Shown: piece after piece, positions 6,588-35,598 of the stretch
How the letters are laid out: each line of letters starts with the position of its first letter
Numbering within the stretch: position 1 is the stretch's first letter
Translations under genes and position numbers: made by a program
Origin: Candidatus Azophilus sp.
GTDB lineage: Bacteria; Pseudomonadota; Gammaproteobacteria; Pseudomonadales; Azotimanducaceae
Direction: 5' to 3'
DNA length: 64,000 bases
NCBI GenBank assembly: GCA_965221755.1
Contig: OZ244921.1
Coordinates: forward strand, 2,706,334 to 2,770,333
Notes under the pieces: model-generated
The model's database searches: none
The model's input: the letters and a program-made list of their open reading frames with translations, nothing else
What the model was told of the DNA's origin: nothing

Positions 6588-6655
6588 GTGGGCAATCGCC
6601 CAGTCAATAGCGTAACGCTGCCTCTGTGGTTGAGTATAAGGTAATCGCGTACCGC

Positions 6656-7639: not shown

Positions 7640-8156
7640 TGGTTTGCTCGCCCTGGTCCATCGGCAAAAAAAGGCCGTAGCCACGGAATCGTCCGGCACC
7701 AATCATGACCGGGCCAGTCACAGGCTGGTCGAAAACCAGCACAGCGTGGCTATGGTTGCGGATGCCGCCATCGAACTTTCGGGTCATGCGCGGAAACTCA
7801 CGCGCATGCGGGACACCCTCCACAAGCGAAACAGGATGCAGCACAACCTCATTCGGCGCTGGCAGTCCAATGCGTTCGCACGCTTTTTTGATATCTTCGG
7901 CGGCGCGTTGCCAGCGGTCGTTGCCGTCGTAATGGCGATCAAGGACGACGGGTGTCACGCTTGCCCAGGTTTTTGACGGGCGCGTCCAGCGTCCCGGACG
8001 CAAGGCCAGGGATGGTCGCTCGCGTGTTTCCTGCTCAACTTCGCATTCCAACCATTCGCCATCGAACAATCGATGCGTCGCCGTGAGGCTGGCCTCGCCA
8101 TACAGGAACCGGGACAGGCAATCGGCGGCTGCCTGTTCACTCGTCTCGCGGGGCAA
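7632..8156 (-). pseudogene. type I-U Csb2 (Cas5/6u) C-terminal fragment
   Basis: WASVTPVVLDRH...HAVLVFDQPVTGPVMIGAGRFRGYGLFLPMD is the characteristic Csb2 C-terminus. Only ~174 codons remain, and tRNA-Arg lies 94 nt upstream, leaving no room for the N-terminal ~300 aa. Confidence 0.55.
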
Positions 8157-8249: not shown

Positions 8250-8326
8250 TGGTACGCCCGGAAGGGCTCGAACCTTCAACCCTCTGCTTAGAAGGCAGAT
8301 GCTCTATCCCGTTGAGCTACGGGCGC
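8250..8326 (-). tRNA. tRNA-Arg (anticodon TCT)
   Basis: Reverse complement: GCGCCCGTAGCTCAACGGGATAGAGCATCTGCCTTCTAAGCAGAGGGTTGAAGGTTCGAGCCCTTCCGGGCGTACCA. It folds as a cloverleaf with anticodon loop CTTCTAA, T-loop TTCGAGC and an encoded CCA. Confidence 0.93.
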
Positions 8327-8436
8327 CGTGACGACCAATCAAAGCAATAACAGACAAAGGGCTGCAAACCAACCCTGGGCGCAGGCCTCCGGCCCACCGC
8401 CAACCGGCCCGGCTTGGGAGGCCGGCCCACCGCATC

Positions 8437-8513
<77 letters not shown>

Positions 8514-9420: not shown

Positions 9421-9983
9421 GAGCGGATTTGCAGCCGCGAATTCCTGCGGCGCAGGCTCCTAAGACCATTTTATTGTCGGGCTCGGGGGTCTGGTGTGGC
9501 GACGGGCATGGCGGAGGCTGAGGCAGCCCAAGCCACCCTTGCGCCGGTTTAGACTGCCACGCAGAATCGCTCGGAACTGACGGACCACGGCCGCCGGGTG
9601 GGGTGCGCGGGCTTGATGATGCCGTCGCGCCCTGTGATGGCACGTCTCGTAGTCGCCAAACCATCTACCCCCTCGACGGGCGAGACGATCATCGCGCGCC
9701 AAGCGATTGGCGCACGCTGCCTCCAATACTCCCGGAAAAGGGGGGCGGGAAATGGCTTCAGCTGCGAGCGAGAGCGGAGGCGGGCCTACGGGGTTTGCCT
9801 TATGAGCATAGGTCACTTTGCGGGCGGATATCGCAATTTAACTCACCTGATATGCTGGCTTACTTCCCTCAGAATAGTTCGCACCCTCATACTCGGCAGT
9901 AAATTTAGCACTTTCTGTGGTTCCGATGTGCATTAGACGGATAGAGGGCTTGCGCCAAGCCCGTTTCTCAGGAGGGTTATCTA

Positions 9984-9998
9984 CCCCCCCCCCCCCCC
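9984..9998. repeat. C15 (G15 on minus strand) homopolymer
   Basis: Counted directly: 7 C at 9984-9990 plus 8 C at 9991-9998. Confidence 0.95.
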
Positions 9999-10275
9999 GA
10001 TTTCGGGCTCGGTCGGATTTGCCAAGCCCTCCGGCGGGGAATTAAGCTTCACTTTGGCCATTAGGTTGCTCCTTTTTCTAGCAGCAGAACGGTTCGCTTG
10101 CCGCAGCAAACTATTATAAAACCACACTATTGTCCCAAAGAAAAGCCGAACTGACAACTGGCTCAGTTCCTGTATAACGATCTCTCTGGGAAAGCCGCCG
10201 CCGGACGCGCCTGCCAAGCGCAGGCTGAGGGTGGACGAGCTGAAAGGAGTGCCCTCTGATTTCTGGTCACACTTG

Positions 10276-10328
10276 CGGAATAAGAGCGAATAAGCTCGGA
10301 ATAAGAGCGAATAAGCTCGGAATAAGAC
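10276..10328. repeat. 21-bp tandem repeat x2.5 (five GAATAAG cores at ~10.5-bp spacing)
   Basis: CGGAATAAGAGCGAATAAGCT at 10276 and 10297, with a partial copy at 10318. It lies 14 nt downstream of the stop of the last operon gene. Confidence 0.9.
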
Positions 10329-10341
10329 GGGCGACCGTCGT

Positions 10342-11736
10342 TTACGTGGCCTTCCAGCGCGCTCCCCGGCCATGTCCGGTCGCTCGCGCCAGACCGGTGG
10401 CCCTCAGGGCAGCCAAACACCGGCGAAGCTGAGAATCGCTTAGCTGCCCATCCAGCAGCGATCGAATTTCGCGCAATGCCAACCCACCACCGGAGTGACG
10501 CAGCAACGCCAAAACCTCATCTTGCCGCTCTGAGAGTCCGGCACCAGCTTGCCGAACGAACGACGCATCCTTGCGTCGAAACCGGACCGTTACGCAGTCG
10601 CCACGCTCCTCGATTTCAGGGCGCGGCAAACCCATTGAGGTTGCCACGTTAGCCATCCTGATCGTGCCCCTGCCCCATTCCTCGATGATGCCCCGCCGGT
10701 AGAAGGTGCGGGCGATCAGAGGATTCCATGGCCTTGATTCGTGCGGCCCGAACAGGTCATCCGGAGTCAACCCGAAGTGCAGCGGGCCGGTGGAGGTCAC
10801 TTCCAGGCGGTCGTCGTAGATGGCGAGACCGATGGAGCCGCCGCCCAGGGCGTAGTCGCGGTGGCACAGCGCATTCGCGAGCGCCTCGCGTGTCGCCAGT
10901 GGCGGGTATAGCGGCTCGTCTATGCGCTGCATGCGGCCCGACTCGAAGCGGCTCGCAATCGGCAACGTATCGCGGAGAAAACGCTCGGCGCTCGCAAGGA
11001 GCACGAAAGCGTTGCCATTGAATTGCCGGTTGTCCAGGAATTCGGATCGGTCAAGCCCACGAAAGCGCGCCACGCGAAGCAGGCATTGAGGCATATCGGA
11101 TTCGAGACGCTCGCGCTTGCCGAACAATGCTGCCGCAGCCCTGAACAGGACTCCGCCGCGCATCAGCCCCAAGCCACGCAGCAAATCCTCCGGTTCCCGG
11201 GTTCCTGGCTCGTCGAGGCGGCCGATGCGAACGGCCTCCGCGATGGTGTTGCGAATCTCGGCAAGATCGAGATCGTCCACGGTCCATCCGACGGCCGGCT
11301 GGTTTTCCCAGCGCTGCTCGGCGTGCATGCGCTCGAAGAGCATGCGGTTGTGCTCAGCGGACGACATGCTCCGGGTCGTGTTGCCGACACGCCGATAGGC
11401 GACATTTCGGTACTGGTAAGGCGGCGAAGACCCGGGGGCTATGCGAACCGCGATCACCTCGCGATTCGCGGACACTTGAATGCGTTCGATCTCCGGAAAC
11501 GCGGGTGGGTCGATGCGTTGGAACTCGGCGCTGACATCCTCGATCGTGCGATCGCCGATACTTTGGCCGACAACGGCTCCTTGAGGAGTAACGCCGAACA
11601 GCACATGGCCGCCGCGCTGGTTGAGCATCGCGCACACGGTCGCCGCGGCTTCACGTCGAGTTCCGGTAGTGGCCTTGAACTCCAGCGTTTCGGACTCGCC
11701 CAATGCGACAAGCGCCTTGATTTGATCGAGCGTCAT
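10342..11736 (-). CDS. AlbA_2 (Schlafen-like) / HATPase_c_4-type ATP-binding protein with C-terminal wHTH
   Basis: N-terminus LVALGESETLEFKATTGTRREAAATVCAMLNQRGGHVLFGV is the classic AlbA_2 'divergent AAA' start. The C-terminus LSERQDEVLALLRHSGGGLALREIRSLL is wHTH-like. The ATG overlaps the upstream stop (ATGA, 11733-11736). Confidence 0.75.
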   Translation of the reverse strand: MTLDQIKALVALGESETLEFKATTGTRREAAATVCAMLNQRGGHVLFGVTPQGAVVGQSIGDRTIEDVSAEFQRIDPPAFPEIERIQVSANREVIAVRIAPGSSPPYQYRNVAYRRVGNTTRSMSSAEHNRMLFERMHAEQRWENQPAVGWTVDDLDLAEIRNTIAEAVRIGRLDEPGTREPEDLLRGLGLMRGGVLFRAAAALFGKRERLESDMPQCLLRVARFRGLDRSEFLDNRQFNGNAFVLLASAERFLRDTLPIASRFESGRMQRIDEPLYPPLATREALANALCHRDYALGGGSIGLAIYDDRLEVTSTGPLHFGLTPDDLFGPHESRPWNPLIARTFYRRGIIEEWGRGTIRMANVATSMGLPRPEIEERGDCVTVRFRRKDASFVRQAGAGLSERQDEVLALLRHSGGGLALREIRSLLDGQLSDSQLRRCLAALRATGLARATGHGRGARWKAT

Positions 11737-12407
11737 TCGTGCGACTCTGCCGTGAGATCCGGGGCGACTCCCTGCTCCAGCGTGTCGAACGCCCGAAGCA
11801 CGAGGCGCTTAGTGCGGTACTCGCCGAAATTTTTCAATTCGTATTGCTTCAGCGATGGGAACGACGAGCCTGGCGGAGTCGCGTCCAGAATCCATTCCAA
11901 GTCAGGGCGGCTGAGCCCGTACATGTGGGCAAAGATCGCGTCGAGTTCCGATTGCAGGCAATGGCGGCGTTGCTCGTTCCATGGGAAAGGCGGTCCCTCG
12001 TAACCGATGTCTCGGGCAAATCCGGTTAACTCCTCCGATGCGTAGGATAATTGTAACGTCCGGGGAACGATCAACTCGACGTAGGGCCTGCCGCAGGCGC
12101 TGTTTTTCAGATACTCGTCCGGCGGCAATACGGGCATCTGTTTGAGAATGAAGACACTCATGTGGACGCCGCCGACGGAGAACCGAGCCGCCCAATCGAG
12201 CGGGAGGCTGTTCATGTTTGTCGAAACGAGTGCAGATGCGATAGTGCGACCGTGCTCGTAGTCGATTATCGGAGCGGTATGCCCGATGCCGCTCCGGGGC
12301 AGGTTGCCCGTGACAAGAGTTCGTTCGTTCGTGGCATTGGTAATGTCGCGAAACGCTTGAATCCATGTCGGGGAATCGCTTCGCGCGAGTGGTCGGCTGG
12401 CGATCAT
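11733..12407 (-). CDS. stand-alone paralogue of the methyltransferase C-terminal module
   Basis: The 224-aa protein aligns by eye to residues ~1198-1390 of the 1403-aa MTase. Shared blocks: ERTL(V/I)T, PRSG, GG(V/T), I(L/I)KQ(M/L)P(V/I)L, IVPR(T/V)L(Q/E)L(S/T)Y, PFPW, GE(Y/F)RTKR. There are ATGA overlaps at both ends. Confidence 0.75.
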   Translation of the reverse strand: MIASRPLARSDSPTWIQAFRDITNATNERTLVTGNLPRSGIGHTAPIIDYEHGRTIASALVSTNMNSLPLDWAARFSVGGVHMSVFILKQMPVLPPDEYLKNSACGRPYVELIVPRTLQLSYASEELTGFARDIGYEGPPFPWNEQRRHCLQSELDAIFAHMYGLSRPDLEWILDATPPGSSFPSLKQYELKNFGEYRTKRLVLRAFDTLEQGVAPDLTAESHE

Positions 12408-15400
12408 AATGAGAGCCCCGGTGACCGGGTCAGGCGGAGTGGGTATGCATTGCCGGTCATGCCGGCAGCCATCATCTCGTCGTATATCTCCAGGATCTCG
12501 CGTTTGGTACGAAATTCGCCGTAGTCACGCTCGTCATCCCGTTTCACGATGGGAAAGGTCTCCAGGATGTAGTCCACATCGTCGCGGTCCATGCCATAGA
12601 GGCGGAACAACGCTGCGTCGATCTCGCACCTCAACCGAAACCGGCGGTCCTCGCTCCACGGAAACGGTTGCTCCTCGTACCCGAGATGCTCCGCGAAGTC
12701 CTGCAACTCCGACGAAGTGTAGGTAAGCTCAAGCACGCGCGGCACAATGAAATCCGCATACATGCAACCCCATCCCATGTCGTCCTGGAACCGTGCCGGG
12801 TGAAGAATGGGAAGCTGCTTGATGATGAAATAGCTGAGATCGGTGCCGCCAACGGCGGAGCGGGCCGCGAAATCGACCACGAACGAGTTGAGGAGCGCGA
12901 CGATGAGGGGTGCCGCTTCATCGGCCGCAACGCGGAGAAGTGGCGCGCGGTCGCTCATTCCAGACCTCGGGACGGGCGCGGTGATGAGTGTTCTTTCATC
13001 CGTAGCTCTTGCTGTTTTCCGGAACGGTACAATCGCCCGGCGAGCGACACGACCGCACCTTTGCTGCCGAGCCCTGTGGCTGGCATGAGGGAGGAAATCA
13101 GGGTTCTCCGGTCGGTTGATCTCGTAATCAGCCTCAACGCGATCTCCCATCCTCGAGCCCGCAGAGCGCGTTGCGGGCCAGTTTGGCGAGCCGATCGAGT
13201 ATAATTGCTCGGCTCGGCTCGGCTCGGCTCGGCTCGGCTCGGCTCGGCTCGGCTCGGCTCGGCTCGGCTCGGCTATCAATTGTATGGTCGTTCCGGACTT
13301 GTCAAGTCTTTCCGCCACTTTTTCTTCCGGAACCCAGTATCGCGGGATGGCGACCGACTCTGGATCCGCCTTCTCTTCCTTGGTCATCGGTCGGGCCTTG
13401 CCGTTTCGGATGTCGTGCTCGGATACGCCGTCGAACGTGGCGAAGCGGTGGTCGTACTGATGAAACAGCTTGGCTTCGTAGAGCGGCAGATAGCGTTCCT
13501 GTCCTCGCACAAATACGTTGCCGTCCAATTTCCACCCGCTGTCGGCAAGTTCCTGGCGGGTTTTGAATAGCCCCGAATCGTTGGACATATCGAACATTCT
13601 GGAGAACTTCACGCCCCATGGATTCTCTTCCGCCTGCGACCCGCTGCCATCCCTCCAGAACACGCCGGCACGCTCGTACATCTTGCGGGCGATATCCATG
13701 TCGCGCCGGGTGCGGAAGATCGGGCAAGTGCGCGTGTTGGGCTTGAACAGCGAGAAATCATCCACCGACAGCGTGAATCGCCGCTCCGCCTCCTTCAATT
13801 GCTCCGCCTGGTGCAGGAAGAAGGCGAACTCGGCCTGCGGCGCCGGACGGTCCTTGCCGCTCAGCGTGAGCAGGCAGAATTTGATACGACTATCGATGCC
13901 CGGAAAAACCTTCTCCCGGTTCTCGAAATCGAACAGGCTGACGAGCCGCTGGCCGCTGACGATATGGTCGAAGTACGCCTTGGTGGAATGGTCGGTCGCG
14001 ATTCCGGTCGGCACGATCAGTCCGGCGCGGCCTCTTGGATTGAGTAGCTGAAGAAAAGTCTCCGCGAAGACGGCGTAGGTGTTCAGATCGCCCACGCCGG
14101 TGAGCGGAAACCGCCCTCCGGTGCGCGCGAACTGGCTGGCCGCCTCGGCTTCGCGCTTTGCGGTCTGGAACTCCTGGAAGAGCGCCATTTCGGCGGGCGA
14201 TGCGCCATCGCGGTCAAGGTGCCGAATCAGACGGTCCCGCGCGGCCTTGTTGGGCGCGGCCGCAATCTCGGGAGACCGCGAGGCGAAAAACTCCTGTTCC
14301 TGTAGCTTGATGCGCTCCCACGGCGGATTGCCGAGCACGGCATCGAAACCACCGTCCTGCATGATTTCGGCGAAGGCGAGATGCCAGTGGTGGAATCGGT
14401 GGCGGTCCTGCAGGTCCCGCGCAAGCTCATGGACGCCGCGGCGCGGGGGCAGTTCGTCCGCCAGCCGATCCAGATCCTGGGTTTGGGACACGATCTCCAG
14501 CGTTTCCCGCCTCTTCGGCGCGAACCATGCGCCCACGAACAGATCGGCGCGTAGCGTCTCCCGGGCGTGCGTCGCATCGTGCAGGCCCGCCGTCCAGGCT
14601 GCGCGCTTGCGTTCCACGTCGTCGAGCGTGTCTTCGGGCATGGCATCCAGATCCAGACCCGCGACTGCAACTTCCAGCACGGCGTCCTGATCGAACAGGC
14701 CGTGCTGATCCGGTTGGCGGTTGCGTTTCTTGAGATCCAGGCACGCCGCCTTGTCGTCGCCGGTCAGAGGTTTGTAGGCGTCCGCGGGAATGCCGTTCAC
14801 CATGATCTCGGGATCGAGCACGCCGACCAGGCTGTCGCCCTGAAGAATGTGGGAATCGAGGAAAGTGAGCGGTTTGCCGGGCTCCACCGTTTCCATCCAG
14901 AGCGCGGTCTTGCAGAGCTCGACGGCAAGCGGATTGCGGTCCACCCCGTAGATGCAGTGCTGCGCCACCTCGCGCAGGGCATGCTGGCGCGCAGTCTCGT
15001 CGGCGGTGTCGGCGCCGGATTCGATGCGGGCGATTTCGGCGGCGAGACGGCGCGCCGCCGCCAACAGGAAATGTCCCGATCCGCAGGCCGGATCAACGAT
15101 CCTCAAGCCCAGAATGGCGCCGCGCGGATCCTTCGGGTTGGCGGCCAGCACTTGGTCGATAACCGGATCGAGCGTGGACCGGACGAGTTCACCGACCAAG
15201 GCGGGCGGCGTGTAGTAGGAGCCGGTCAGCTTGCGCTCCGATCCCCTGACCCTCTCCTCGTTATCGTCACCGACAAAGGCGAAAACCCAGGGCGAAGCAT
15301 CCACGTCGATGACAGGGTGAAGTTCCAGAAGGCTCTCGTAAACAGACCCCAGTTCCTCGGTGCCCATGTCCCGGTAGTTGACGCGGGCGAGCGCGTTCCC

Positions 15401-16615
15401 GGAGCGGAAGAATGTCAGAGTGCGGATCGCTTCGAGCAAGTGTTCGTTGGCGATGGCCGCCGCATCGAGGTCGGGGCATTGGTCGCTGCGGAACAGACCG
15501 TCGAGAGCGGGAAGGCCGAGGCCCGGAGCGCCGCCGGCGAGTGCGCCGAAGGTGATCTCAAGACCCTGCCAGAGATCGCCGTTGCGGTCGTAGTGACGCC
15601 GCCGAAGTGCCCGCTCACGCAGACGGGAAAGGGCGTAGCCTTGCGAGTAGATGGTGCGCTGCTCGATGGTCGCCTCAGCCGTGTGCAGCAGATCGCGTTC
15701 CTCGGCGGTGAACAGGAAGAGCAGGCGGTAAACGAGCCGAAGAAGCTGCTGGAAGTAACGCTCGGGTGGGAGTGAACCGTTTTCGAGGGCTTCCCGAAGT
15801 TGAACGTTGGCCGGATGCCGCAGGAACCCGTTGCCGAGCCGTCGCAAGGTGTGGGTGACGCCGTCGCGGAGATTTTCCCGGACACGCTCGCCGGTCTCGT
15901 GCGCCTTGGCCCGCCAGGATTCGATGATGCAGCTCGCCGGCCTGCCATCGGACGGTTTCAGGCGGCTCGCATGAGCGGTGAGCCAGAGCGCGGCGAAGTC
16001 CGGGTAGAGCTGCTCCGCGAACATCAGGCCGAGATCGGCTTCGATGTAGGAGGGCCGCGTGAGGCTGGCGTTGTCGCGCAGCAGCCGGAGTTTCGTGCCG
16101 TTGGAAACCATGCCCCAGAGTGCAGTGTCCTCGGCGTTGAGATACTCCTGCATCGTGCCGTGCGCGGCCTGCCGACGGCCGTCCTGGCCGAGTCGGAGGT
16201 CGGCCTTGTCGAGATCGAAATCGTGCGTCACCAGCAGCAAGGGCACGGCGCCGTTGCATGCGCTGTGGGTCAGTTTGAAAACTCGCTCGTCCAGCGTCGC
16301 GCTTCCGGCAGGGGCAAGATCGTCGTACCCGAGCAGCAAACGCAGGAACAGCACGAGCCATTCGTCGACGCCAACCGTGGACGCGAGAAGATCGGTTCGC
16401 GGGCGACGCTCGGCATAGCGGCCGTAAAGATCGTTGCCGATGCGCCAGTACCGCGCCAGCTCCTCCTTGATCGCGAGCGATTGGGACAACCCGTAGTCGG
16501 CGCCGGTCTGGCGCGGCGCCTTCAAGGCAACCACGGTCTGAAGAAACTCGGGCGGCAGGATGCCGCCTTCGATCTTCAGCGAGGTGAACCCACAGCTCTT
16601 TCGGGTGCCCGCCAT
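12404..16615 (-). CDS. large gamma-class N6-adenine DNA methyltransferase (Eco57I/DrmMI-like)
   Basis: 1403 aa. YYTPPALV, motif I VDPACGSGHFLL (508-519), motif IV GNPPWERIK (762-770). Sits between the SNF2 gene and the CTD paralogue. Confidence 0.85.
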   Translation of the reverse strand: MAGTRKSCGFTSLKIEGGILPPEFLQTVVALKAPRQTGADYGLSQSLAIKEELARYWRIGNDLYGRYAERRPRTDLLASTVGVDEWLVLFLRLLLGYDDLAPAGSATLDERVFKLTHSACNGAVPLLLVTHDFDLDKADLRLGQDGRRQAAHGTMQEYLNAEDTALWGMVSNGTKLRLLRDNASLTRPSYIEADLGLMFAEQLYPDFAALWLTAHASRLKPSDGRPASCIIESWRAKAHETGERVRENLRDGVTHTLRRLGNGFLRHPANVQLREALENGSLPPERYFQQLLRLVYRLLFLFTAEERDLLHTAEATIEQRTIYSQGYALSRLRERALRRRHYDRNGDLWQGLEITFGALAGGAPGLGLPALDGLFRSDQCPDLDAAAIANEHLLEAIRTLTFFRSGNALARVNYRDMGTEELGSVYESLLELHPVIDVDASPWVFAFVGDDNEERVRGSERKLTGSYYTPPALVGELVRSTLDPVIDQVLAANPKDPRGAILGLRIVDPACGSGHFLLAAARRLAAEIARIESGADTADETARQHALREVAQHCIYGVDRNPLAVELCKTALWMETVEPGKPLTFLDSHILQGDSLVGVLDPEIMVNGIPADAYKPLTGDDKAACLDLKKRNRQPDQHGLFDQDAVLEVAVAGLDLDAMPEDTLDDVERKRAAWTAGLHDATHARETLRADLFVGAWFAPKRRETLEIVSQTQDLDRLADELPPRRGVHELARDLQDRHRFHHWHLAFAEIMQDGGFDAVLGNPPWERIKLQEQEFFASRSPEIAAAPNKAARDRLIRHLDRDGASPAEMALFQEFQTAKREAEAASQFARTGGRFPLTGVGDLNTYAVFAETFLQLLNPRGRAGLIVPTGIATDHSTKAYFDHIVSGQRLVSLFDFENREKVFPGIDSRIKFCLLTLSGKDRPAPQAEFAFFLHQAEQLKEAERRFTLSVDDFSLFKPNTRTCPIFRTRRDMDIARKMYERAGVFWRDGSGSQAEENPWGVKFSRMFDMSNDSGLFKTRQELADSGWKLDGNVFVRGQERYLPLYEAKLFHQYDHRFATFDGVSEHDIRNGKARPMTKEEKADPESVAIPRYWVPEEKVAERLDKSGTTIQLIAEPSRAEPSRAEPSRAEPSRAEQLYSIGSPNWPATRSAGSRMGDRVEADYEINRPENPDFLPHASHRARQQRCGRVARRAIVPFRKTARATDERTLITAPVPRSGMSDRAPLLRVAADEAAPLIVALLNSFVVDFAARSAVGGTDLSYFIIKQLPILHPARFQDDMGWGCMYADFIVPRVLELTYTSSELQDFAEHLGYEEQPFPWSEDRRFRLRCEIDAALFRLYGMDRDDVDYILETFPIVKRDDERDYGEFRTKREILEIYDEMMAAGMTGNAYPLRLTRSPGLSL
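13207..13274. repeat. pentanucleotide SSR (GCTCG)13+GCT inside the methyltransferase ORF
   Basis: Counted directly: 13 full 5-nt units from 13207 plus 3 nt. It is translated as (AEPSR)4AE at residues 1115-1136. Confidence 0.95.
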
Positions 16616-16617
16616 GC

Positions 16618-19494
16618 TCAGAGATTCGCCATGGGCATGAACACGTAGACGCCGATCTTGTCGATCGGCAGCGCCGGGACGACGTTGTAGCGCAATCCCC
16701 GCGCATCGCTGGCCTCGCGGATGCGGCGATGGTCGGAGAGCAGGCGCGCGGCCCGCTCATGGACAACACGGTCGAAAGTATCTTCCAGGGCAGGCAACGA
16801 GTCGAGCGCCTGGCGAATGAGGTGGGATTTTTGACCATCCGGCATGTTGCGGCCCGGTTCCAGCGCCAGCAGAGACAGGGCGTCCTCATCGGCCAGGAGC
16901 TCGGTCGCATCGGCGCCCCGGACGGCGAGGGCAAGGCATTCCTCGGCGAGAAGCGACCGCAAGGGGGCGTAGCGGCCGTCGCTCGCGCGGCGTTCGATCT
17001 CGATCTGGCTGCGCAGCCGCAACAGGTAGAGCACCGTGCGGGTATCGACGCCCCGCGTGAAGATGGCGCTGCATCGGGCGCCGATTTCCGGCGAGCCGGC
17101 GTCGAGCGCCTGCTCGACCACATGATCCGCAAGCGTAGCGACCAGCGGATGGGCGCGGTGGATGTAAGCCGCTCCGGCTGGCGCCGGCTGCTTGAAGGCG
17201 ACGTTGGCTGCCGCTGTGAATCGGATCGCTTCGAGGCGGTCCTGAAGCGGCTTGGGCAGGTAGGCCGTCGGCAGCCGGAAGTAGCCGTCTCGCGTATCAA
17301 GCGGTGCGCCGAGACGCGCGGCGGACAGGCGCACGAAACGGGCGACATCGTCCGGTCCGCCCAGCACGGAGACGGCCTTGCGCCATTCGGGTAGCACGTC
17401 GTCCGGTGTCAGGCGCCGCTGCGCGAAGACCGTGCGCGTCATCCGGTTGGTCGCCGTTTGCCAGGCATCGTCCACCTCGGCCTCGGTGTCGCCGAAATCG
17501 AACACGGTCTGCGCGGCCTGGGAGTGGGAGCCGCCGTGAAGCAGGACGGCCTTCATGATGGCATCCACCACCTTGTTGTTGTCGGCCGGTAGCGGAACGG
17601 AAACGCCCAGTTCCTTGCGGATCTTCTCGGCCTTGCGGAGGATCACGCGCAGCACCGCGCCGTCCACCGGATTGTTCTCGCCGTAGAGCATCAGCGCCCG
17701 AACCGTGCGGGAGGCTTGCCCGAAACGGTCGGCCCGGCCCTCGCGCTGCTCGTGGCGGGTGGGGTTCCAGGTCAGGTCGTAATGGACCACCGCGTTGAAG
17801 TGGTTCTGCAGGTTGACGCCTTCCGAGAGGCAGTCGGTAGCAACGAGTACGGGTGCGATTTCTTTCTCGAGATCCGAAAACGCCCCGACCCGTTCCTCAC
17901 GCTGGTCGGGCGTGAGTTCTCCGGTCACCACGGCGACATGGGCCTGACCGGGACTCAAGGCCCCTTTGAGTTGCTCGCCGACGTAATGCGCGGTGGCGAT
18001 GTAGCGGCAGAACACGACCGGGCGGAACCCGTCGCGCACCAACTGCGCAACCTCGTCGATGAGCGTCTTGAGCTTGGGATCGTTGCGCGGGCCGCGTAGC
18101 GCGCCCGCGCGGTTGATGAGTGCGCGCAAGGCTTCGGCGTCTTCTGCCCCCTCGACAGTGCCAGCGGGCACGCTCTCCGCCAGCGAGAGCGAATCATCCT
18201 CCGTTTCATCCATGACCGTTTCGGCCGCCGTCCGGTCCAGGCTGTCGAGTTGCGCCTGTTCGGTCTCGCCCTCGGCGGCCTGCAAGCGCGTGCGCAGCGC
18301 CAGTGACGCGGCGGCGGGGCTGGAGGACGCACAGCGCAGCAACGCGAGCGCGGCCCACCAGGACATCCGCTGCTGAAGCCGGGTGCCGCCCTCTGCGCGT
18401 CGGACCATGGTCCGGGCGTAGGCAAGCACATCGTCGAACAGGCGGCCCCATGCGCCGGTCAGCCGGTAGGTCGCCTCGCGGCTTTCGCGAACCGGGAAAC
18501 CGGCATCGTCCTTCCACTCGGCGATGTCGCCGCGGCGGCGCTGCACGAAATGCAGCGCGAGCCGGTCGCGAAGGCGGCGGCGCAGTTCGCCCTCGGGCAT
18601 TTCCGCCAGCTCCACGAACTTCGGGTCCAGCAGGGCCAGCAGGTTGTGAAACGCCGTATCGTCGCCCGAATGCGGCGTGGCCGTGAGGAAGACCATCCCG
18701 CGAAGCGGCTCGCTTTCGGCCAAACCCTTGAGAAGCTGGTAGCGCTGGTGGCGGGTGCTCGTGTTCGCCTGCATGCAGGCGTGGGCCTCGTCCACGATGA
18801 CGAACTCCGGGCAGGCCCGCAGGAAGTCGCCGCGCCTGCGGTCGGACTTGATGTAGTCGAGTGACACGACCGTGAAGGGATGAACCTCGAACAGCGACTC
18901 GTCCGGGCGCAGACCCCGCTCCAGGCGGGTGGCCGTTCCAGTGCGCACGACCTCGGCGTCGATGCCGAACTTCTCCGAGAGTTCCTGCTGCCATTGCTCG
19001 CACAGGTGGGGCGGGCATATGATTGCGAGCCGCTCGATCTCTCCGCGATCGAGGAGTTCCCGGGCGATCAGCCCGGCCTCGATGGTCTTGCCGATGCCGA
19101 CATCGTCGGCGACGAGCAGCCGCACCGTGTCGAGCTTCAGCGCCATGAGCAGCGGCACGAGTTGATAGGCGCGCGGTTCGACATTGAGGTTGCCGAAGCT
19201 CCGGAACGGCCCGGCGCCGGCGCGTAGCTTGAGGCGCAGCGCGTCCCGCAGGAGAAGCGCGGCGTCGTGCGGACCCGGTTTTTCGGGATCCGGCAGATCG
19301 AACGTGGCGGGCGCGGGCGCTTCGGGTTCGAGTGGAAGATAGATGAGGGCGGCGTCATCCTCGGCGCCGCCGAGCGGCCGGAGCTTCAGGAGGTTTTCGC
19401 GCGTCTCCGGCAGCACGACCCATTCCCGGTCGCGCGCCCTGACCAAATCCCCGGGTTTGAACGCGACAGCAGTTTCCGTTGCCATGTCCGGCAT
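16618..19494 (-). CDS. SNF2-family ATPase/helicase (DrmD-like)
   Basis: 958 aa. YQLVPL...LLVADDVGIGKTIEAG (motif I), VIVDEAHAC (DEAH), VATDCLSEGVNLQ, HEQREGRADRFGQ (motif VI). Confidence 0.85.
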   Translation of the reverse strand: MPDMATETAVAFKPGDLVRARDREWVVLPETRENLLKLRPLGGAEDDAALIYLPLEPEAPAPATFDLPDPEKPGPHDAALLLRDALRLKLRAGAGPFRSFGNLNVEPRAYQLVPLLMALKLDTVRLLVADDVGIGKTIEAGLIARELLDRGEIERLAIICPPHLCEQWQQELSEKFGIDAEVVRTGTATRLERGLRPDESLFEVHPFTVVSLDYIKSDRRRGDFLRACPEFVIVDEAHACMQANTSTRHQRYQLLKGLAESEPLRGMVFLTATPHSGDDTAFHNLLALLDPKFVELAEMPEGELRRRLRDRLALHFVQRRRGDIAEWKDDAGFPVRESREATYRLTGAWGRLFDDVLAYARTMVRRAEGGTRLQQRMSWWAALALLRCASSSPAAASLALRTRLQAAEGETEQAQLDSLDRTAAETVMDETEDDSLSLAESVPAGTVEGAEDAEALRALINRAGALRGPRNDPKLKTLIDEVAQLVRDGFRPVVFCRYIATAHYVGEQLKGALSPGQAHVAVVTGELTPDQREERVGAFSDLEKEIAPVLVATDCLSEGVNLQNHFNAVVHYDLTWNPTRHEQREGRADRFGQASRTVRALMLYGENNPVDGAVLRVILRKAEKIRKELGVSVPLPADNNKVVDAIMKAVLLHGGSHSQAAQTVFDFGDTEAEVDDAWQTATNRMTRTVFAQRRLTPDDVLPEWRKAVSVLGGPDDVARFVRLSAARLGAPLDTRDGYFRLPTAYLPKPLQDRLEAIRFTAAANVAFKQPAPAGAAYIHRAHPLVATLADHVVEQALDAGSPEIGARCSAIFTRGVDTRTVLYLLRLRSQIEIERRASDGRYAPLRSLLAEECLALAVRGADATELLADEDALSLLALEPGRNMPDGQKSHLIRQALDSLPALEDTFDRVVHERAARLLSDHRRIREASDARGLRYNVVPALPIDKIGVYVFMPMANL

Positions 19495-22400
19495 CAGCCG
19501 TTTCCGTTCATCGATGGGGTACCCGATCCGAACACCCAGGCATACCGGTCGACGATGCCCGGCCAGGATGAGCGGTCGGCCGGGAAGCGCACCACGGTGT
19601 AGCCGGCGTCGACGAGGCGGCGGTCGATAGCTTCGTCGGCGCTGTCCCGGACCGCCCCTTGATGTTGTGGACCGTCAACGTAAACCAGGATCTGCGAGTC
19701 GGTGTAGGCGAAATCGGGGCGGGTCGCGTAGATTTCGAGCAACGGCTGAGCCTTGTCCGGCAAGCGATAGCCATTCGACTCGATGAAACGCAGCCACGCC
19801 TTCTCCAGGGAGGACGATGAAACGTTCAACAGTTCGTTGTAGCTGTCGCCGGCGGCAACTTCGTGCTCCAGACTCTTGCGCGAACTGCGCGTGAACCGGC
19901 AAAGCAGTTCGAGCATCTCGCCGTCTTGCCGGTCGATAAGGGGATGCTCCGGCTGGTTGTAGTAGCTCAACAGGCAGCGGTAGCAGCCGGCTTCGCAATC
20001 GGTGTCGAGATTCTCAAGATCGTCCGCTCCGGACCACTCGCCCGACTTCGAGGAGTAATGGCAAACTTCCAGAGCGCGGCGGGCAATGCGCGCCAAGGCC
20101 TCGGGGTCGGTGGCCAGACGCGTCAGGACGCCCGCGCCTCCCTCGGCGGCTTCGTAAAGCAGGACCGTCGCACGGTTGTCCCTGTCGGGCAGGGGCTCGG
20201 CGGCCAGTTCGGCCTCCTCCAGTTGAAACTCCTGCTCGATGCCCCGCTTGAGAGCGTACTGCAGAGAGACCATGGCGGTTTCGGACAAATTGACCGCTGG
20301 ACGCACGACGAGGACGTTCCGTGTGTCCTCGACGAAGGGTGTGATGCGCTCGACCGTCTTGCCCTCGCGCACGGCGTCGTCTTCGGCATCGGTCGGCGCC
20401 TGGGCGTCCTTGCTCCATTCGCCGGTGTTGGTGTCCACGCTGAAGCCGTAAACGGTTTTCTCCCTGCGCCGCCGCCATCCCAGGTTGATGCGCCACAGCA
20501 TGGCCGCCGGGCCATAGCGGAGTTCCATCAGCGTCTCGCCGCCCTCCTCGATGGCGATGCCCTCGGCCCGCGCCCGGCCATTTTCCTCGCTGAACCGGAG
20601 GGTTGTAATCATTTCGTAGCCTTGTCGCTGGCGTTCCTCCTCGTCCGAGGTGATGCGGTTCGCGCGCTGGGTCGAGACCTGCTCGATACGATACAGATTC
20701 GGAACGATGCGCCCGCCGTCGAGACGGGCGCCGCAACTGACGCAGCGCTCGTAGTCCTTCTGATCCCCGAAATGCCCGTAACCGCAAGCGGGACAGAGGC
20801 GGGCCGCCTGTACGGGGAGCTTGGCGGATGCCCTCACTCCGCCCTCGTCGCGCACCGAGAGAATGGCGCGCCGCACCCGATAGGTGCTGCCTTCGTGATA
20901 GATGATGGACTGGGGCCCGAACTCGGTGAGTCCGAGGAACCGCGGACGGCTCAGGAAGGCGTCGCGAGCCACCTTCTCGCGGCGGCCGGGAACGAAGGCC
21001 ATCAGCGGCAGGCGCGGGAAGTTGTATCCCGGCAGAAACCCCTCGGCGGCCAAATAGCGGTAGGTGTAGAAGTCCGAGTTCATGGTCGGCCTGCTGTCGA
21101 GGAGCAGGTTCTGCTGCGTGTACGCCTCGTCGTAACGCGCCTTGGCCTCCCTGCGTTCCCGTTCGGTGGCGGCGGCGTTGTTGACGACATCGTTTGCGAA
21201 CTTCATCTGGTTCGAGGTCGCGCGGTAGAGGGAACGCCATCGGTCGAACGATTTGTGGAAGCGGCGTTCGGCGGAGTTCATCGTGCCATCGAGCCACGTT
21301 TCCGTGTGCCAGGGCGCGGCCTGCCCGGAGAGGTCGGATGTGAGAGTGGACAGAATGCGCTTCCCTCGCCGCCCGGCCGCGGCCACGGCCCGGTCGGCGC
21401 CCACTTGCAGTGCGACCTCCTCATGCACGGGAAGGTTGTCGAGCCTGTCCATGTCGAGCACTTCGCGCACGGAATAACCGAGCTTTACGCCCGTCTCCGC
21501 GAGCCAGACGGCCTGTAGGTGGCTGCGGATCAGGTCCTCGTTGGCGAGATCGATGTTGGGCGGATTGACCGCGCCGGCCACCATGCGTGTCGGATCGGAG
21601 AAGAAGTACTGGTCGTGCGGCGACCTCGCCGCGCAATAGGTGACCACCAGCGCCGGCTGGCCGCTGCGGCCCGCCCGTCCGCTGCGTTGGGCGTAGTTCG
21701 CCGGAGTCGGCGGCACGTTGCGCATGTACACCGTGTTGAGCGTGGAGATGTCGACGCCGAGTTCCATGGTCGGCGAACAGAAAAGTATAGGCAGCCCGGC
21801 GGGCTCGACCTGGCCGTCGACGACGCGCTCGCCCTCCAGTCCCTTGCGGAAACGCGCTTCCCGCACCTCGCGCACGTCGGAGTCGACCTGGGCGGTGTGT
21901 TCGCGCGCCTCAAGCTGGTGCAGCAGGCGGTCGTCGCTGACCAGGAGACCCGCGACGTTGCGGTAGAGGCTGCGGAAAAACGCATTGGTCGGCGTGCTGT
22001 CTTCGGAAGCCTCGTCGGCCAGACGCCATTCGAGCACCGAGCCGTCGATGCGGTAGCCGGTGCGTTCGGCGTCGAGGCCCGCGGGTTCGACGTAGCCGTG
22101 GGTCGTCAGCACGGCAAGTACATCGTCGATGAGATCGTTGTACACGCCCTCGTCGAACCTGGACGGATAGCACGGATTTTCCGCTCCCCAGAACGCCTGG
22201 GACTTGATCTTGCGGCCGAATGCGGAGCGGTGGGAGACATGGAGGGTGCGGAACTCGTCCCGGCGGCCGCCGCGGCTCGGTCTGGGGACCATGAAGGCAT
22301 GCGTGAAAAGGCGTTCGTCCTCCGACAGGCCCCAGGGTTCCCTCAACTCGTTGAAGCTTCGATTGCGGATCCGCTCCTGAAAGTTCGGATCGAGATAGAT

Positions 22401-24761
22401 CGTCTTGATGCAGAGCGCCCGGCGCATGCGCTCCAAAAGATCGTTAACGAGAGCGAAGCGGCGTTCGGGCGAAATGGAGCCGAGCAAGGGGTGGCGTTTT
22501 CGCCATTCCTCCTCGTCCCGGCAGCAGTCCATGAGATCCCGGTATTCGATCTTCAGCAGCCGCAACTGCTCGAGATTCGGGTTGGTGATGCGCCAGCCGC
22601 GTTGCAGATCGAAATACAGCCGATACCCGAGCACGTCGCGCAGCGCCTTCAGCGTGTTCTGGGCCTTGACCCCCTTGGCCTGGGGGTTGGATGCGTAGTC
22701 CGCCGGATCCAGACGCAGGCAATCGAGGACGCGTTGCGTGAGCATGTCGTCGGTCAGGCGCGCTCCGTCGGCGGTCGGGATGGACGCGAGCAGGGCGCCA
22801 CGCAAGAGCAGAATCTGTATGAAGTCATTGAAATGCCCGGCCTGGAGGCTGGCGTCCTGCCGGTTGTCGGTGAACGCAAGGAGCTTTTTCGTCCGCTCGT
22901 CGAGGTCGGCTCCGATGAGATGCTTCAGCGAGGACAGCGCCAATACGGTGGTTGCCGAACTCCGGCCCTCGCTGGACAGGCCGGAGAGCTTGGTGAGCTC
23001 GCTGCGAACGCTGCCGTCGAAATAGGCGTCGCAGTCCGGATTCAGGCAAAAGCGGAACGGTCCAGGAATGAACCGCGCCGGCAAACCGTCCGCGGCCACG
23101 CCGCCCGTGGTGTCGACGTGGACGGAGAGCGGGCTGTACTTGCGGAAATGGGGCTTGATCCGGGCCTGGTCGTCGCGAAACTCCAGCCACTCCTCCGGAT
23201 ATCGGGAATCAGATTCGGTCGAATCGAACACGCCGGAAGGGTCGGGCATCAGGTAGCCGTACTGGATTTCGTCGTCGTCGTTGGAGCGTTCCGACAGGTC
23301 GCGCGGTTTAAATTCCTGCGGTTGCTTACCGGCCAGTTTCGCCCAAACGGGCAGGTATTCCTGGCCGCACCCCCTGCAAAAGCTAAGCGAGTACAGCGGG
23401 CGCTGGCGGTCGCCGGGCTTGAATTGCTGGCCGTGCAACGTGATGTACCGTTCGCCTGGCGCTTCGAGAGTCGAATACGCGTTCCAGGCGCCGCTGATGA
23501 ACTGATGCAGGCGGAACGCGAAGAAACTCGCGCCGCGCTCGTTACGGCTGCGGTGCGCGGCCAGCAGGAAGCTCGCGAGGTAGTTTCGGCACAGCCCGTC
23601 ATCAAGGCCGCTCTCGTTCGCCAAACGGCTCGAAGCGTCCAGCAGGGTCAGGGGCCGCGAAATCCGCACAATCCTGCCGTCGCGTTCCTCGAGGCCGAGA
23701 TTGCGCTCCACCCAAGCGGCTGCGGCGTGTTCCGCAAGATGCTCATGGGTGGGATCGTCCGGGACACCTTGTTCGATGGCGGTGCGCAGCTCGGACCCGG
23801 TCGGAGATGGACTGGAGCTGGTCACCGGGCTCAGCGTCTCGGTAACAACGTTCCCGGGATCGACGGAAACGCCGAACAAGCGGCTCGCCACGCACGCGAT
23901 GGTCGTGTTCCGCTCTTCAAGAGAGCCTTCGGTGGCCATGGTTGCGGAGGTGCCTATGCACAGCAGACGGTCGTTGAAACGCTCGCGCACCCGCCGCACC
24001 AGCATGGCGACATCGGCGCCCTGGCGCCCGCGATACGTATGCAGCTCGTCCAGAACCAGGAAGCGAAGCCCCGCCGCGTGTTCGCGAACCGCCTTGTCGG
24101 TTTCGTGGAAGCGCGTCATGAGCAATTCCAGCATGACGTAGTTGGTCAGCAGGATGTCGGGCGGGTTCTTGGCGATGCGCTCGCGCTCCTCGTTCGATTC
24201 CTGTCCGGTATAGCGCGCAAAAGTAACCGGCTCCCCGCCTTCGCCGTAGCCGAGGCGCAAATATCGCTCCAGCTCTTCGCGCTGGCTGTTGCACAGGGCG
24301 TTCATCGGATAGACGACGATGGCGGTGATGCCCTTGCGGGCGTCTCCCGCCCGCTTGGCGCGCAGCACGTCATCGACGATGGGAATGAAATAGGCGAGCG
24401 ACTTGCCGGAACCGGTGCCGGTGGTGAGCACGTAGCTTTCGCCGCGTTGGGCGATCTCTATCGCGTCGGTCTGGTGGCGATGCAAGCGAAGCCGTTTGCC
24501 AAACGTGTCGGCGGGATGCTTGAGCCGGAAGATTTTCGCGCACTCCTCATCGAGCACGCCGTCGGCGACGAGGTCGTCGATGTATCCGCCCGGCTTGAAA
24601 TTGGGATTCAACTGGATGAGTGGAGCCGGCCAGAAACGACCGGCGTCGTATTCCGAGTCCACTGTCCGGGAGATGTCCTCGGAGCGGATTCGGGTAAAGC
24701 TTCGGGAGAATCGTGCGTACTCGGCGATGAGTTCCTCGCGAAACGCGAATACGTCCATCAC
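19494..24761 (-). CDS. DExH helicase fused to a DUF1998 Zn-ribbon module and a C-terminal DUF559/Vsr-like nuclease domain (DrmA+DrmB-like / DruE-like)
   Basis: 1755 aa. GTGSGKS (115-121), DELH (238-241), SAT (272-274), [10 protein letters not shown] (1025-1034). DUF1998 signature: [21 protein letters not shown] (1323-1343), [12 protein letters not shown] (1589-1600). DUF559-like part: [29 protein letters not shown] (1681-1726). AAGGA SD before GTG/ATG 24761/24758. Confidence 0.85.
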
Positions 24762-24768
24762 TTTTCCT

Positions 24769-25557
24769 TCATCGGCACGGCCTCAAAGCATACGTCATAC
24801 TGGAAGCTCCCGAAATACGAGGAAATCCCATTGTCAACCTGAGCGTTCCGGGCAGCGCGATGCGCTTGCCGGACAACCTTGGAATGACTAGATTCGGATC
24901 AAAGTGATTCGGAGACGATTCCGCGACATTAAGGGTGTCGGCTGCACCGTAACCCTGCCATCGTCCAACTGTCGGTCGCTGGCTTCCCGGAGGGCCGTTG
25001 GGGAAACGATCCGCTAATTCGCCTTGCAGTTGCTTCAGGCGCCGTCTTTGCGCCTTAGTACCTCGATAGTGACCTTCGAAATCTCGTGGGCGCTTCGCCG
25101 CAATAACTCGTTCTCGTATTTGGTCAGCATTCGGGGAGCGGGCGAGATACCGAGCTTCCGATTGAGTAAGTCGATCGAAGGGGTGGCCGAAGTAATCCCT
25201 CCACCATTGTTCAAGGGCTTTTCCATGGTTCTCCCTCAACTCTTTGAGTTGTTCATCACGAAGTGCAAGTCTAGCGGAATAGGGCTTCCCTGTTAACACC
25301 ACCGCCGCTGCCACGAATCCTCCTTGATTGACAATGTGCCCGCGCAAATTAGCAAGAGTGCCACCCTGTCCAACGAAGTCATCAATTAGGACATAGGTTT
25401 TGCCCCGCTCCACCACCCCTGTGAACAATGCTTGACGGGCAAGTCGGCCATATCCGTCTGCTCCGGTATGCGAGACGATATTGCTTTGCCAAATGTCAAC
25501 CGCATAGTCGCTACCTGACTGCTCGCTAATGATCCGAGCCAAGGCCGAAGGGAGCAT
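24769..25557 (-). pseudogene. phosphoribosyltransferase-fold domain protein, probably 5'-frameshifted and truncated
   Basis: PRPP-loop-like YVLIDDFVGQGGTLANL. The N-terminal continuation lies in another frame (tail of ORF 25526..26236: ...LAAVHAHESNLN / MLPSALARIISEQ). The last ~80 codons run through an AT-richer stretch. The stop TGA (24769-24771) abuts the helicase SD. Confidence 0.5.
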
Positions 25558-35595: not shown

Positions 35596-35598
35596 CAG

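Follow-up and report, generated by a model that had tools for sequence, protein, structure and literature searches.

A probable ARMADA Type I operon with a candidate repeat-driven switch in its methyltransferase gene in Candidatus Azophilus sp.

Which defense system do five coupled genes of Candidatus Azophilus sp. encode, and what might a repeat of non-triplet unit do inside the methyltransferase gene among them? We analyzed a 64,000-nt stretch of contig OZ244921.1 (hereafter the window, whose numbering is used throughout), in which the five open reading frames (ORFs) occupy the minus strand from 10342 to 24761. We refer to them, from g1 to g5, as armC, armA, armB, CTD2 (a stand-alone copy of the C-terminal module, CTD, of ArmB) and the AlbA_2 gene. 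An earlier sequence-only reading had taken the operon for a non-canonical relative of DISARM class 1, with a composition and gene order that it did not recognize as a described subtype. Our analysis points elsewhere. With a probability of roughly 0.8, this is an ARMADA Type I operon whose armB is switched by the repeat.

Gene content and identity of the operon

All five ORFs are in the ORF list at the positions where the sequence-only reading had placed them, and the junctions are as it described: armC and armA share 1 nt (the stop of one and the start of the other, TGATG), armA and armB are 2 nt apart, and armB, CTD2 and the AlbA_2 gene are joined by ATGA overlaps, in which the ATG of each downstream gene overlaps the stop of the gene before it. 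Its domain calls were upheld by Pfam: helicase–DUF1998–DUF559 for armC, SNF2 for armA, Eco57I/N6_Mtase for armB, and SLFN_AlbA_2 with HATPase_c_4 for the last gene.

The largest product, ArmC (19494–24761; 1755 aa), resembles YprA/DruE-like DExH helicases. A single ORF holds DEAD (aa 95–276), Helicase_C (aa 990–1034) and MZB/DUF1998 (aa 1500–1597; window ~19971–20264) domains, followed by a Vsr/DUF559-type nuclease of the PD-(D/E)xK kind (aa ~1640–1740; window ~19542–19844). The Pfam match to DUF559 (aa 1683–1729) is marginal but above threshold, at 21.1 bits against a cutoff of 20.6. Helicase motifs GSGKS117 and DELH238 are intact. Among 76 homologues down to 40% identity, the nuclease motif RPD1683F...D1696GPxH1700...D1709 is at least 97% conserved, as are the DUF1998 cysteines Cys1589/1593/1596, and the nuclease is predicted to be active. 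The best PADLOC model for ArmC is DruE3 at 318 bits, followed by DruE1 at 289 (range for DruE1–4, 230–318), compared with 84 for DpdJ and 46 for DrmA; the DruE models align to parts of ArmC only. A sequence search of the PDB matched the DruE-like entries 9tu7 and 9wae. Two proposals of the sequence-only reading are thus borne out, that helicase and DUF1998 form one DruE-like polypeptide and that a nuclease other than PLD is fused to it.

ArmA (16618–19494; 958 aa) is a SNF2 ATPase of the BrxHII/RapA/DrmD-like kind, with SNF2-rel_dom and Helicase_C domains and intact motifs GIGKT133 and DEAH235. Its best NCBIfam match is DrmD (NF038317), at 345.5 bits against a cutoff of 610; RapA gives 130 bits and DpdE 195 (cutoff 500). 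The NCBIfam score for DpdJ is 81 bits (cutoff 800). In PADLOC, a 'DpdE' model, PDLC02853, aligns end to end at 677 bits, followed by DrmD; BrxHII scores 158 bits. ArmB (12404–16615; 1403 aa) is a PglX-like gamma-class N6-adenine methyltransferase, present in the window in a fused, in-frame state. Pfam identifies Eco57I, N6_Mtase and MmeI_Mtase domains, motifs VDPACGSG507 and NPPW763 are intact, and the best PADLOC model is DrmMI at 250 bits. Searching the PDB with the ArmB sequence gave no match. Foldseek, run with a low-confidence ArmB model, placed PglX/BrxX first (8c45, 8q56, 9ewz; E = 3e-4, TM 0.16), weakly supporting PglX as the closest structural relative.

This set of proteins is that of ARMADA, named by Bell et al. 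2025 (bioRxiv 10.1101/2025.09.15.676423) as a 'missing link' between DISARM and Druantia. As described there, ARMADA has in common with DISARM class I a BrxHII/RapA-like SNF2 protein and a PglX-like methyltransferase. Its YprA-like helicase lies nearest to that of Druantia, off the DISARM/Dpd branch in the published YprA phylogeny, and carries a fused OB-CON-DUF1998 module and a C-terminal 'predicted active Vsr-type nuclease' of the PD-(D/E)xK superfamily. ArmC is also described with a BrxA-like domain after RecA1, a zinc-binding β-barrel and a MarR-like domain in RecA2. Type I has the order YprA-like, BrxHII-like, PglX-like (ArmC–ArmA–ArmB) and lacks the GajB-like ArmD (Bell et al. 2025). In the window we find the fused DUF1998 helicase on the DruE side, the Vsr nuclease, the SNF2 protein, the PglX-like methyltransferase and this gene order, and Pfam detected no ArmD-like UvrD domain in the five operon proteins. 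The branch on which we place the helicase is judged from hidden Markov model (HMM) scores and from identity to a listed ARMADA helicase. HMM libraries that antedate 2025 give a mixed picture of the locus, with DruE, 'DpdE' and DrmMI as best matches. The architecture seen by the sequence-only reading, partners of DISARM class 1 (SNF2 and adenine methyltransferase) combined with a DruE-like fused helicase, amounts to the ARMADA definition.

The listed helicase is U9J23_27605 of Rhodococcus sp. PD04, an 'ARMADA Type I helicase' in Table S1 of Bell et al. 2025; its plasmid, CP142145.1, came up as match H25 of a plasmid search with the window's helicase. In the Rhodococcus locus these three genes follow one another in the order seen in the window, their stops overlapping, and all three products align over their full length with those of the window, at 41% identity for ArmC (aa 2–1747), 42% for ArmA and 35%/39% for ArmB. 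CxxC motifs at positions 462, 1323 and 1340 of ArmC have counterparts at 450, 1289 and 1307 of the Rhodococcus protein. Since composition and order are those of ARMADA Type I, and the proteins are homologous to those of a listed member, the core is not an undescribed subtype, contrary to what had been proposed. Judged by these features, we assign the locus to ARMADA Type I (armC–armA–armB) with high confidence. It shares with described members the three proteins, their order and the absence of ArmD. It differs in that ArmB of the window and of a sponge-associated clade carries a non-triplet repeat and a linker ahead of the CTD, in that the CTD is often a separate 224-aa ORF, and in that the window has a second CTD as well as an AlbA_2 gene appended to the operon. 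ARMADA Type II has homologous SNF2, adenine methyltransferase and YprA–Vsr helicase proteins but a different order (armA–armB–armC–armD), and it requires ArmD, a GajB-like UvrD helicase that the operon lacks; its ArmC often has extra inactive nuclease domains, and its armB varies more than any other gene of the system among E. coli strains (mBio 2026, PMC13463889).

Could the locus nevertheless be a variant of DISARM class 1 (Ofir et al. 2018), made up of DrmD, DrmMI and a DrmA–DrmB fusion, with DrmC replaced by DUF559 and two genes added? The two systems do resemble each other in having a SNF2 protein, an N6-adenine methyltransferase and a YprA-family helicase with DUF1998, and methylation-based discrimination of self from non-self is presumably common to both. 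DrmD and DrmMI are the top matches of ArmA in NCBIfam and of ArmB in PADLOC, and Bell et al. 2025 state that ARMADA shares these two proteins with DISARM class I. Yet the DrmD score is well under its curated cutoff, the helicase scores far higher with DruE than with DrmA, and the published YprA phylogeny groups ARMADA with Druantia. Moreover, in DISARM class 1 DrmA and DrmB are separate and the nuclease, DrmC, is a PLD protein, whereas the window has a fused, Vsr-type helicase of the Druantia/ARMADA branch; no separate DrmB was found, and no PLD domain in the five operon proteins or in 11 flanking ORFs scanned. The earlier statement that the island holds no PLD gene stands for these ORFs, the rest of the island lying outside the scan. 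DISARM membership is refuted, because the features that define it were tested and are not those of the locus, and the name ARMADA Type I already covers the composition and order. We regard a DISARM assignment as very improbable.

A Dpd-like (7-deazaguanine) or Druantia-type system is an extremely improbable alternative. It could be argued from the end-to-end match of PDLC02853 to ArmA and from the DruE1–4 scores of ArmC. Druantia DruE proteins (types I–III) are indeed large YprA-family helicases with a fused DUF1998, and give the best HMM and PDB matches to ArmC. However, these matches cover only parts of the protein, Druantia III DruE carries PLD domains rather than Vsr (Bell et al. 2025), and the Druantia partner genes are missing, with no DruA–D, DruM/F/G or DruH among the operon and neighboring ORFs. 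For Dpd, the NCBIfam scores for DpdE and DpdJ are far below their cutoffs. To see which genes accompany the trio, we scanned genomes, one for each species, for relatives of the helicase, which turned up at 79 loci, and determined the gene content of these loci by tblastn with the window's proteins. Neither DpdA/B/C-type genes nor any other extra conserved genes accompany the trio across these 79 loci. PDLC02853 probably contains ArmA-like sequences, and it could label ARMADA loci wrongly as Dpd.

What the system does is suggested by its relatives. ARMADA Type II of E. coli protects against many phages without abortive infection, and this defense requires all of its genes as well as the NPPW motif of ArmB (Bell et al. 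2025; PMC13463889). By analogy with ARMADA II and DISARM, we infer that the operon would combine methylation of its own DNA with attack on DNA that lacks the mark. ArmB would mark host DNA by N6-adenine methylation; ArmA, as a SNF2 translocase, and ArmC, as a helicase with a predicted active Vsr-type nuclease, would act on unmodified invading DNA directly and non-abortively. ArmB may be needed for defense in addition to modification, as in Type II.

A non-triplet repeat at the ArmB junction

Within armB, Tandem Repeats Finder (TRF) identified a perfect pentanucleotide repeat at 13207–13274 (AGCCG ×13 on the coding strand, GCTCG ×13.6 on the plus strand; 100% matches, score 136). It is the only short-unit microsatellite that the program found in the window. 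The sequence-only reading makes no mention of it. The repeat encodes AEPSR repeats (aa 1114–1137) that separate the N-terminal part of ArmB (aa 1–1113) from a linker (aa 1138–1194) and an additional C-terminal module, CTD1 (aa 1195–1403; window 12404–13033), fused to the enzyme. The two other frames at the tract stop 23 and 83 codons downstream.

Related loci show the same feature at the same place. Of 74 related loci, 39 have one or more perfect repeats in this junction zone; the zones contain 47 tracts in 66.7 kb, compared with 19 in the remaining 1.66 Mb. Unit lengths in the zone are 1, 4, 5, 7, 8 or 11 bases; not one of the 47 tracts has a unit of 3, 6, 9 or 12. Units vary by lineage (GCCGA, GAGCA, GACAG, CGGAT, TCGGG, CGAC, ACCG, ACCGAGA, CCAAGAT, ATCGACAG, poly-C and others), and copy numbers reach 50–54. 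In a second, independent and larger sample of 120 ArmB homologue clusters, 72 had a peptide repeat at aa ~1105–1125, with a period of 5 (55 clusters), 7 (9), 4 (4), 8 (3) or 1 (1). The longest of these extends over 170 aa, or 510 nt, and up to ~100 units are present. Over loci and clusters together, units of 1, 4, 5, 7, 8, 10 or 11 bases were seen, with no multiple of three among them. More distant relatives have no such insertion: the 22 CTD-mapped loci with an ArmB body at most 55% identical to that of the window, and Rhodococcus, are all fused and free of tract and insert, the ArmB body continuing directly into the CTD motif WRDTTNASNERT.

Tract length varies between close relatives. The closest relative of the window, L001, is 98.9% identical by blastn from 24783 to 13207, the alignment stopping exactly at the repeat, and 89.2% identical from 12369 to 10278. 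L001 lacks the linker and CTD1 (window 13207–12369). It has 32 units and an ArmB truncated at 1198 aa, as against 13 units and a fused ArmB in the window. Among the 120 cluster proteins, 38 reach full length (1380 aa or more) and 82 are truncated, and full-length and truncated forms, with varying copy numbers, coexist at identities of at least 90% in 10 of 10 clusters examined; the cluster of the window itself includes copy numbers of 30, 12, 6, 12 and 21. In a Longimicrobiales metagenome-assembled genome (MAG; CBDBEC010000002.1) that holds two complete copies of ARMADA Type I at a distance of 1.3 Mb (L017 and L019), the tracts differ, one copy having ACCG ×54 plus CCGA ×45 and the other ACCG ×50. 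Tracts occur in short-read and long-read assemblies alike. At least seven short-read contigs break off at the tract; three independent short-read assemblies of one and the same system (L082, L084 and L085, which encode P0079) end in ArmB at aa ~1138–1146, where the tract lies. We consider it highly likely that the repeat is a real frame-switching hotspot.

What is read downstream depends on the frame. Tails after the repeat fall into three length classes in the cluster listing, ~295, 70–100 and 25–35 aa, and a hand count of the repeat-bearing clusters assigned 25 to frame A, 17 to frame C and ~28 to frame B, about one third each. Frame A is open through the linker into the CTD and yields a fusion. 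Frame B meets a stop at a conserved position after ~25–35 codons, yielding a truncated ArmB. Translation in frame C gives 'GSQLALRKITNATNERTG...', which copies the start motif of the CTD itself, and continues for ~70–100 codons; it ends in an (A/G)TGA in which the stop overlaps the start of the 224-aa CTD ORF, so that ArmB and CTD form a split, coupled pair. Over the 80 nt past the tract in 16 loci, variability in frame C is lowest at codon position 2 (0.07–0.11), with 0.25–0.34 at position 1 and 0.36–0.42 at position 3. This pattern of variability argues for purifying selection in frame C. In out-of-frame loci, the ORFs for the N-terminal part and for the CTD both stay intact.

We propose that ArmB in this lineage acquired a hypermutable repeat of non-triplet unit between its main body and the C-terminal module, and that slipped-strand changes in copy number would move downstream reading among the three frames, giving the CTD fusion (A), the split and translationally coupled pair (C) or the early stop (B). 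The methyltransferase would thereby be switched reversibly and, with it, the whole system. The window is in a fused state, with 13 units and an extra, complete CTD1 on ArmB, followed by the usual stand-alone CTD gene. From the sequence comparisons we lean, with some reserve, toward adaptive phase variation as the meaning of the switching. That more than one frame is functional is doubtful.

In a more elaborate form, the tract would be an evolved three-state switch. Frame A would fuse the CTD; frame C would give an ArmB with a short CTD-like end together with a coupled, free 224-aa CTD; and frame B would truncate ArmB and uncouple the CTD. These states would differ in methylation and restriction (for example defense on, modification only and all off), and extra CTD copies would add further states. 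Among the bacteria of more than 10 phyla through which the lineage has spread horizontally, and of which at least some live in sponge microbiomes, dense symbiont communities could in this way toggle their barrier to phage and foreign DNA. We offer this as a speculative and, taken as a whole, rather unlikely extension.

There are precedents for such a switch. In pglX of the Streptomyces coelicolor Pgl/BREX system and in the phasevarion mod genes of Haemophilus and Neisseria, a tract in a defense methyltransferase gene likewise changes length, shifts the frame and switches the system. The armB tract differs in lying at ~80% of the ORF, between the enzyme body and the C-terminal module; in being far longer (up to ~100 units) and built of many different units across lineages; and in that each of its frames has a defined product, three in all with a split coupled pair among them, in place of simple on/off switching. 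The hosts also differ, being uncultured sponge symbionts of many phyla and not pathogens.

Alternatively, the repeat may be a mutational hotspot in a decaying symbiont system, the frame changes reflecting pseudogenization or assembly error in a low-complexity linker. Several observations fit this reading and weigh against a switch. The fused frame is not the one read in about two thirds of relatives, and frames A, B and C are about equally frequent, a near-even spread that neutral decay at a hotspot would also produce. In ~8 of the 79 loci armC or armA is disrupted, so some copies are decaying, and tracts of up to 510 nt might be runaway expansions. Phase variation is deduced here by comparing consensus assemblies between genomes, and an assembly that errs by one unit in repeat length would misassign the frame. 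AlphaFold2 models of ArmB aa 440–1403 (pLDDT 57; pTM 0.39) and of the 224-aa CTD (32 sequences; pLDDT 58, below 50 in the N-terminal half) are too poor to decide the role of the CTD or the effect of its loss on the enzyme. The published ARMADA experiments, finally, concern Type II, with ArmD, only (Bell et al. 2025).

Other features weigh against decay. A coding linker would tolerate triplet units, yet none of the 47 tracts has a unit that is a multiple of three. Many different unit sequences occupy one fixed site in different lineages, the flanking ORFs remain intact out of frame with a signature of purifying selection past the tract, and one alternative frame ends in a conserved (A/G)TGA stop/start overlap. 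Both states are found within clusters at identities of at least 90%, and the tracts appear with either sequencing technology. We therefore hold decay or assembly error to be an unlikely account of the tracts, and continue to favor a repeat-switched armB.

In the literature searched, we found no description of repeat-driven phase variation in ARMADA, DISARM or sponge symbionts. The terms 'phase variation', 'frameshift' and 'Schlafen' are absent from the main text of Bell et al. 2025, and the few mentions of 'repeat' that were inspected are unrelated. Nor did we find an account, for either ARMADA or DISARM, of the repeat-bearing, split or duplicated ArmB C-terminus, of the spread among sponge phyla or of the shared AlbA_2 passenger.

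If the tract does mediate phase variation, contingency loci would extend from pathogens to uncultured symbiont communities, and the repeat would offer a built-in genetic handle on those ARMADA functions that need the C-terminal module of ArmB. For annotators, the pairs of a 'truncated methylase' and a '224-aa hypothetical protein' in these MAGs would then each be one switchable gene.

C-terminal modules and the AlbA_2 gene

CTD2 (11733–12407; 224 aa) aligns with ArmB aa 1195–1381 at 41% identity (E = 6e-49), in agreement with the earlier suggestion that it is a copy of the methyltransferase's C-terminal module. It is 60–75% identical to the single CTD of most related loci, and among PADLOC models it aligns with the C-terminal end of one for type IIG. 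In the 79 loci the CTD is as a rule either encoded by a 224-aa ORF or forms the C-terminus of the methyltransferase itself. Of the top 120 database homologues of CTD2 (61–93% identity), nearly all are stand-alone ORFs of 213–248 aa. We read CTD2 as the orthologue of the CTD carried by most relatives, and the fused CTD1 as the extra copy. A second complete CTD of this fused type is present in the window, L003 and L033, where it lies between the linker and the ATGA, and the three are 74–80% identical to one another. In the window, CTD1 is in frame with ArmB and gives the 1403-aa fusion, followed by the coupled CTD2.

Two other views of the CTD copies were considered and set aside. One was that CTD2 is the dead leftover of a cassette swap; its type is the orthologous, widely conserved one, and it is not debris, since its database homologues are almost all conserved stand-alone ORFs. 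The other was that the CTD copies are specificity cassettes. No hypervariable target-recognition region was seen in ArmB, which is evenly conserved outside the junction and the CTD, and given this we dropped the idea as conceivable but unsupported.

Which of the five genes form the system itself? The armC–armA–armB trio has the same order in essentially all of the 79 loci where the contig is long enough, and only the trio and the methyltransferase CTD are co-conserved across them. The sequence-only reading had asked whether the five-gene set is co-conserved; the neighborhood survey does not bear this out for the AlbA_2 gene (10342–11736; 464 aa), an accessory gene whose Schlafen-like SLFN_AlbA_2 domain is combined with HATPase_c_4. 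Homologues are present in only three other loci, L001 (94% identity), L033 (partial) and L022 (72%), and in L022 the gene sits between armA and armB.

Relatives of AlbA_2 were found at 36 loci in a metagenome scan, most of these with no ARMADA gene nearby. In three of three neighborhoods scanned among these, the relative (64–67% identity) lies within a Type I restriction–modification operon, upstream of hsdR (L103, 2278–11533; L113, 2854–11734; L097, 3633–11531), and in L103 and L113 it comes after hsdM and hsdS. Other passengers stand beside it in two of these operons, AAA_21 and DUF4435 in L103 and DUF2806 in L113. Being rare among ARMADA loci and found in Type I restriction–modification operons, the AlbA_2 gene is accessory: a separately acquired module that rides in methylation-based restriction operons. 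It nonetheless travels with the cassette shared by the window and L001.

Could it still be that all five genes belong together, the CTD paralogue and the AlbA_2 ATPase being integral subunits of a single obligate system? The ATGA overlaps that couple the last three genes would suit such an arrangement, as would the wide occurrence of the 224-aa CTD ORF and the fact that the window and L001 share the entire five-gene block, and nothing more, in different genomic contexts. Against it, AlbA_2 is missing from 75 of the 79 related loci and takes another position in L022, and its relatives in the three neighborhoods scanned belong to Type I restriction–modification operons with no ARMADA genes nearby. 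Other ARMADA Type I loci, moreover, hold unrelated accessory genes at similar junctions. In related operons, the interval between armC and armA holds GmrSD-type restriction enzymes and a UvrD-like helicase; cyanobacterial loci have, between armA and armB but on the opposite strand, a PIN/FitA-like VapBC pair (passenger coordinates: L018, 15240–17063; L054, 15586–17550; L055, 15529–17631; L051, 9692–10521). An obligate five-gene system is thus quite improbable. In a weaker sense it does hold for the CTD: fused to ArmB or separate from it, this is a conserved module of the enzyme.

Distribution and genomic setting

The 79 loci come from more than 10 phyla and include Gamma- and Alphaproteobacteria, Bryobacterales, Caldilineaceae, Rhodothermales, Thermodesulfobacteriota, Thermoanaerobaculia, Latescibacterota, Longimicrobiales, Acidimicrobiia, Binatia, Nitrospira, cyanobacteria and Anaeromyxobacter. 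Many are 65–85% identical to the window at the protein level, which suggests recent horizontal spread. Contig prefixes MKWU, LXNI and LXNJ among the relatives are those of marine-sponge metagenomes (Horn et al. 2016; Slaby et al. 2017). Non-triplet repeats occur in most members of the lineage at 60–98% protein identity, in Proteobacteria, Acidobacteriota, Chloroflexota, Gemmatimonadota, Bacteroidota, Actinomycetota, Latescibacterota and others; marine sponges are the source of many of these. The window itself offers a natural, intact example of ARMADA Type I, a type named in 2025.

One relative stands beside genes for type IV secretion, AlpA and HicB. The upstream context shared by L082, L084 and L085 comprises VirB3, TrbC, AlpA and HicB, which suggests that the system is carried there on a conjugative or integrative (mobile) element. 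Relatives on plasmids of cultured species include a full-length ArmC homologue (41% identity) on the Deinococcus radiodurans R1 megaplasmid (NC_000958.1, 157173–162290) and a complete trio without a repeat tract, its ArmC likewise full length and 58% identical, on Roseomonas mucosa plasmid p5-AD3 (NZ_CP034907.1, 15257–27302; L081). These two loci could be tractable test systems for Type I.

The block common to the window and L001, as delimited by blastn, is 10278–24783, and the flanks differ on both sides. Because only this block is shared and the flanks are unrelated, the five genes were either transferred or kept together. A 21-bp tandem repeat (×2.5; 10276–10327, TRF), just 3′ of the AlbA_2 stop, sits at the 3′ boundary of L001 homology. 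About 280 bp past it is a C ×15 homopolymer (9984–9998). A 130-aa ORF that spans both (9981–10373) has no family match and is probably spurious.

As the sequence-only reading had noted, the operon lies in a tRNA-adjoining accessory region with cas remnants. The host is a gammaproteobacterium associated with marine sponges. Genes for tRNA-Arg and tRNA-Pro are found at 8250–8513, 1.8 kb from the end of the operon. Past the tRNA pair, at 5432–7702, two minus-strand ORFs encode a Cas3 HD domain (289 aa) and the N-terminal part of a ResIII/DEAD helicase (348 aa), and look like a split or decayed cas3. On the other flank, a 262-aa ORF and weak transposase-associated debris are followed by a gene for a housekeeping periplasmic binding protein. 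The 262-aa ORF (minus strand, 24769–25557) ends 7 nt ahead of the armC start and has only sub-threshold matches (PRTase, 16 bits; XopC-family effector, 23 bits). By tblastn, neither it nor the small downstream ORF is conserved in any of the 79 related loci. It may supply a promoter or be an unrelated neighbor; a scan of the operon for promoters and terminators gave nothing exceeding shuffled expectation. Two longer tandem repeats are present elsewhere in the window, a 145-bp repeat (×2.8, 99% matches) at 35597–35997 and a 45-bp repeat (×4.4, 90% matches) at 2636–2835.

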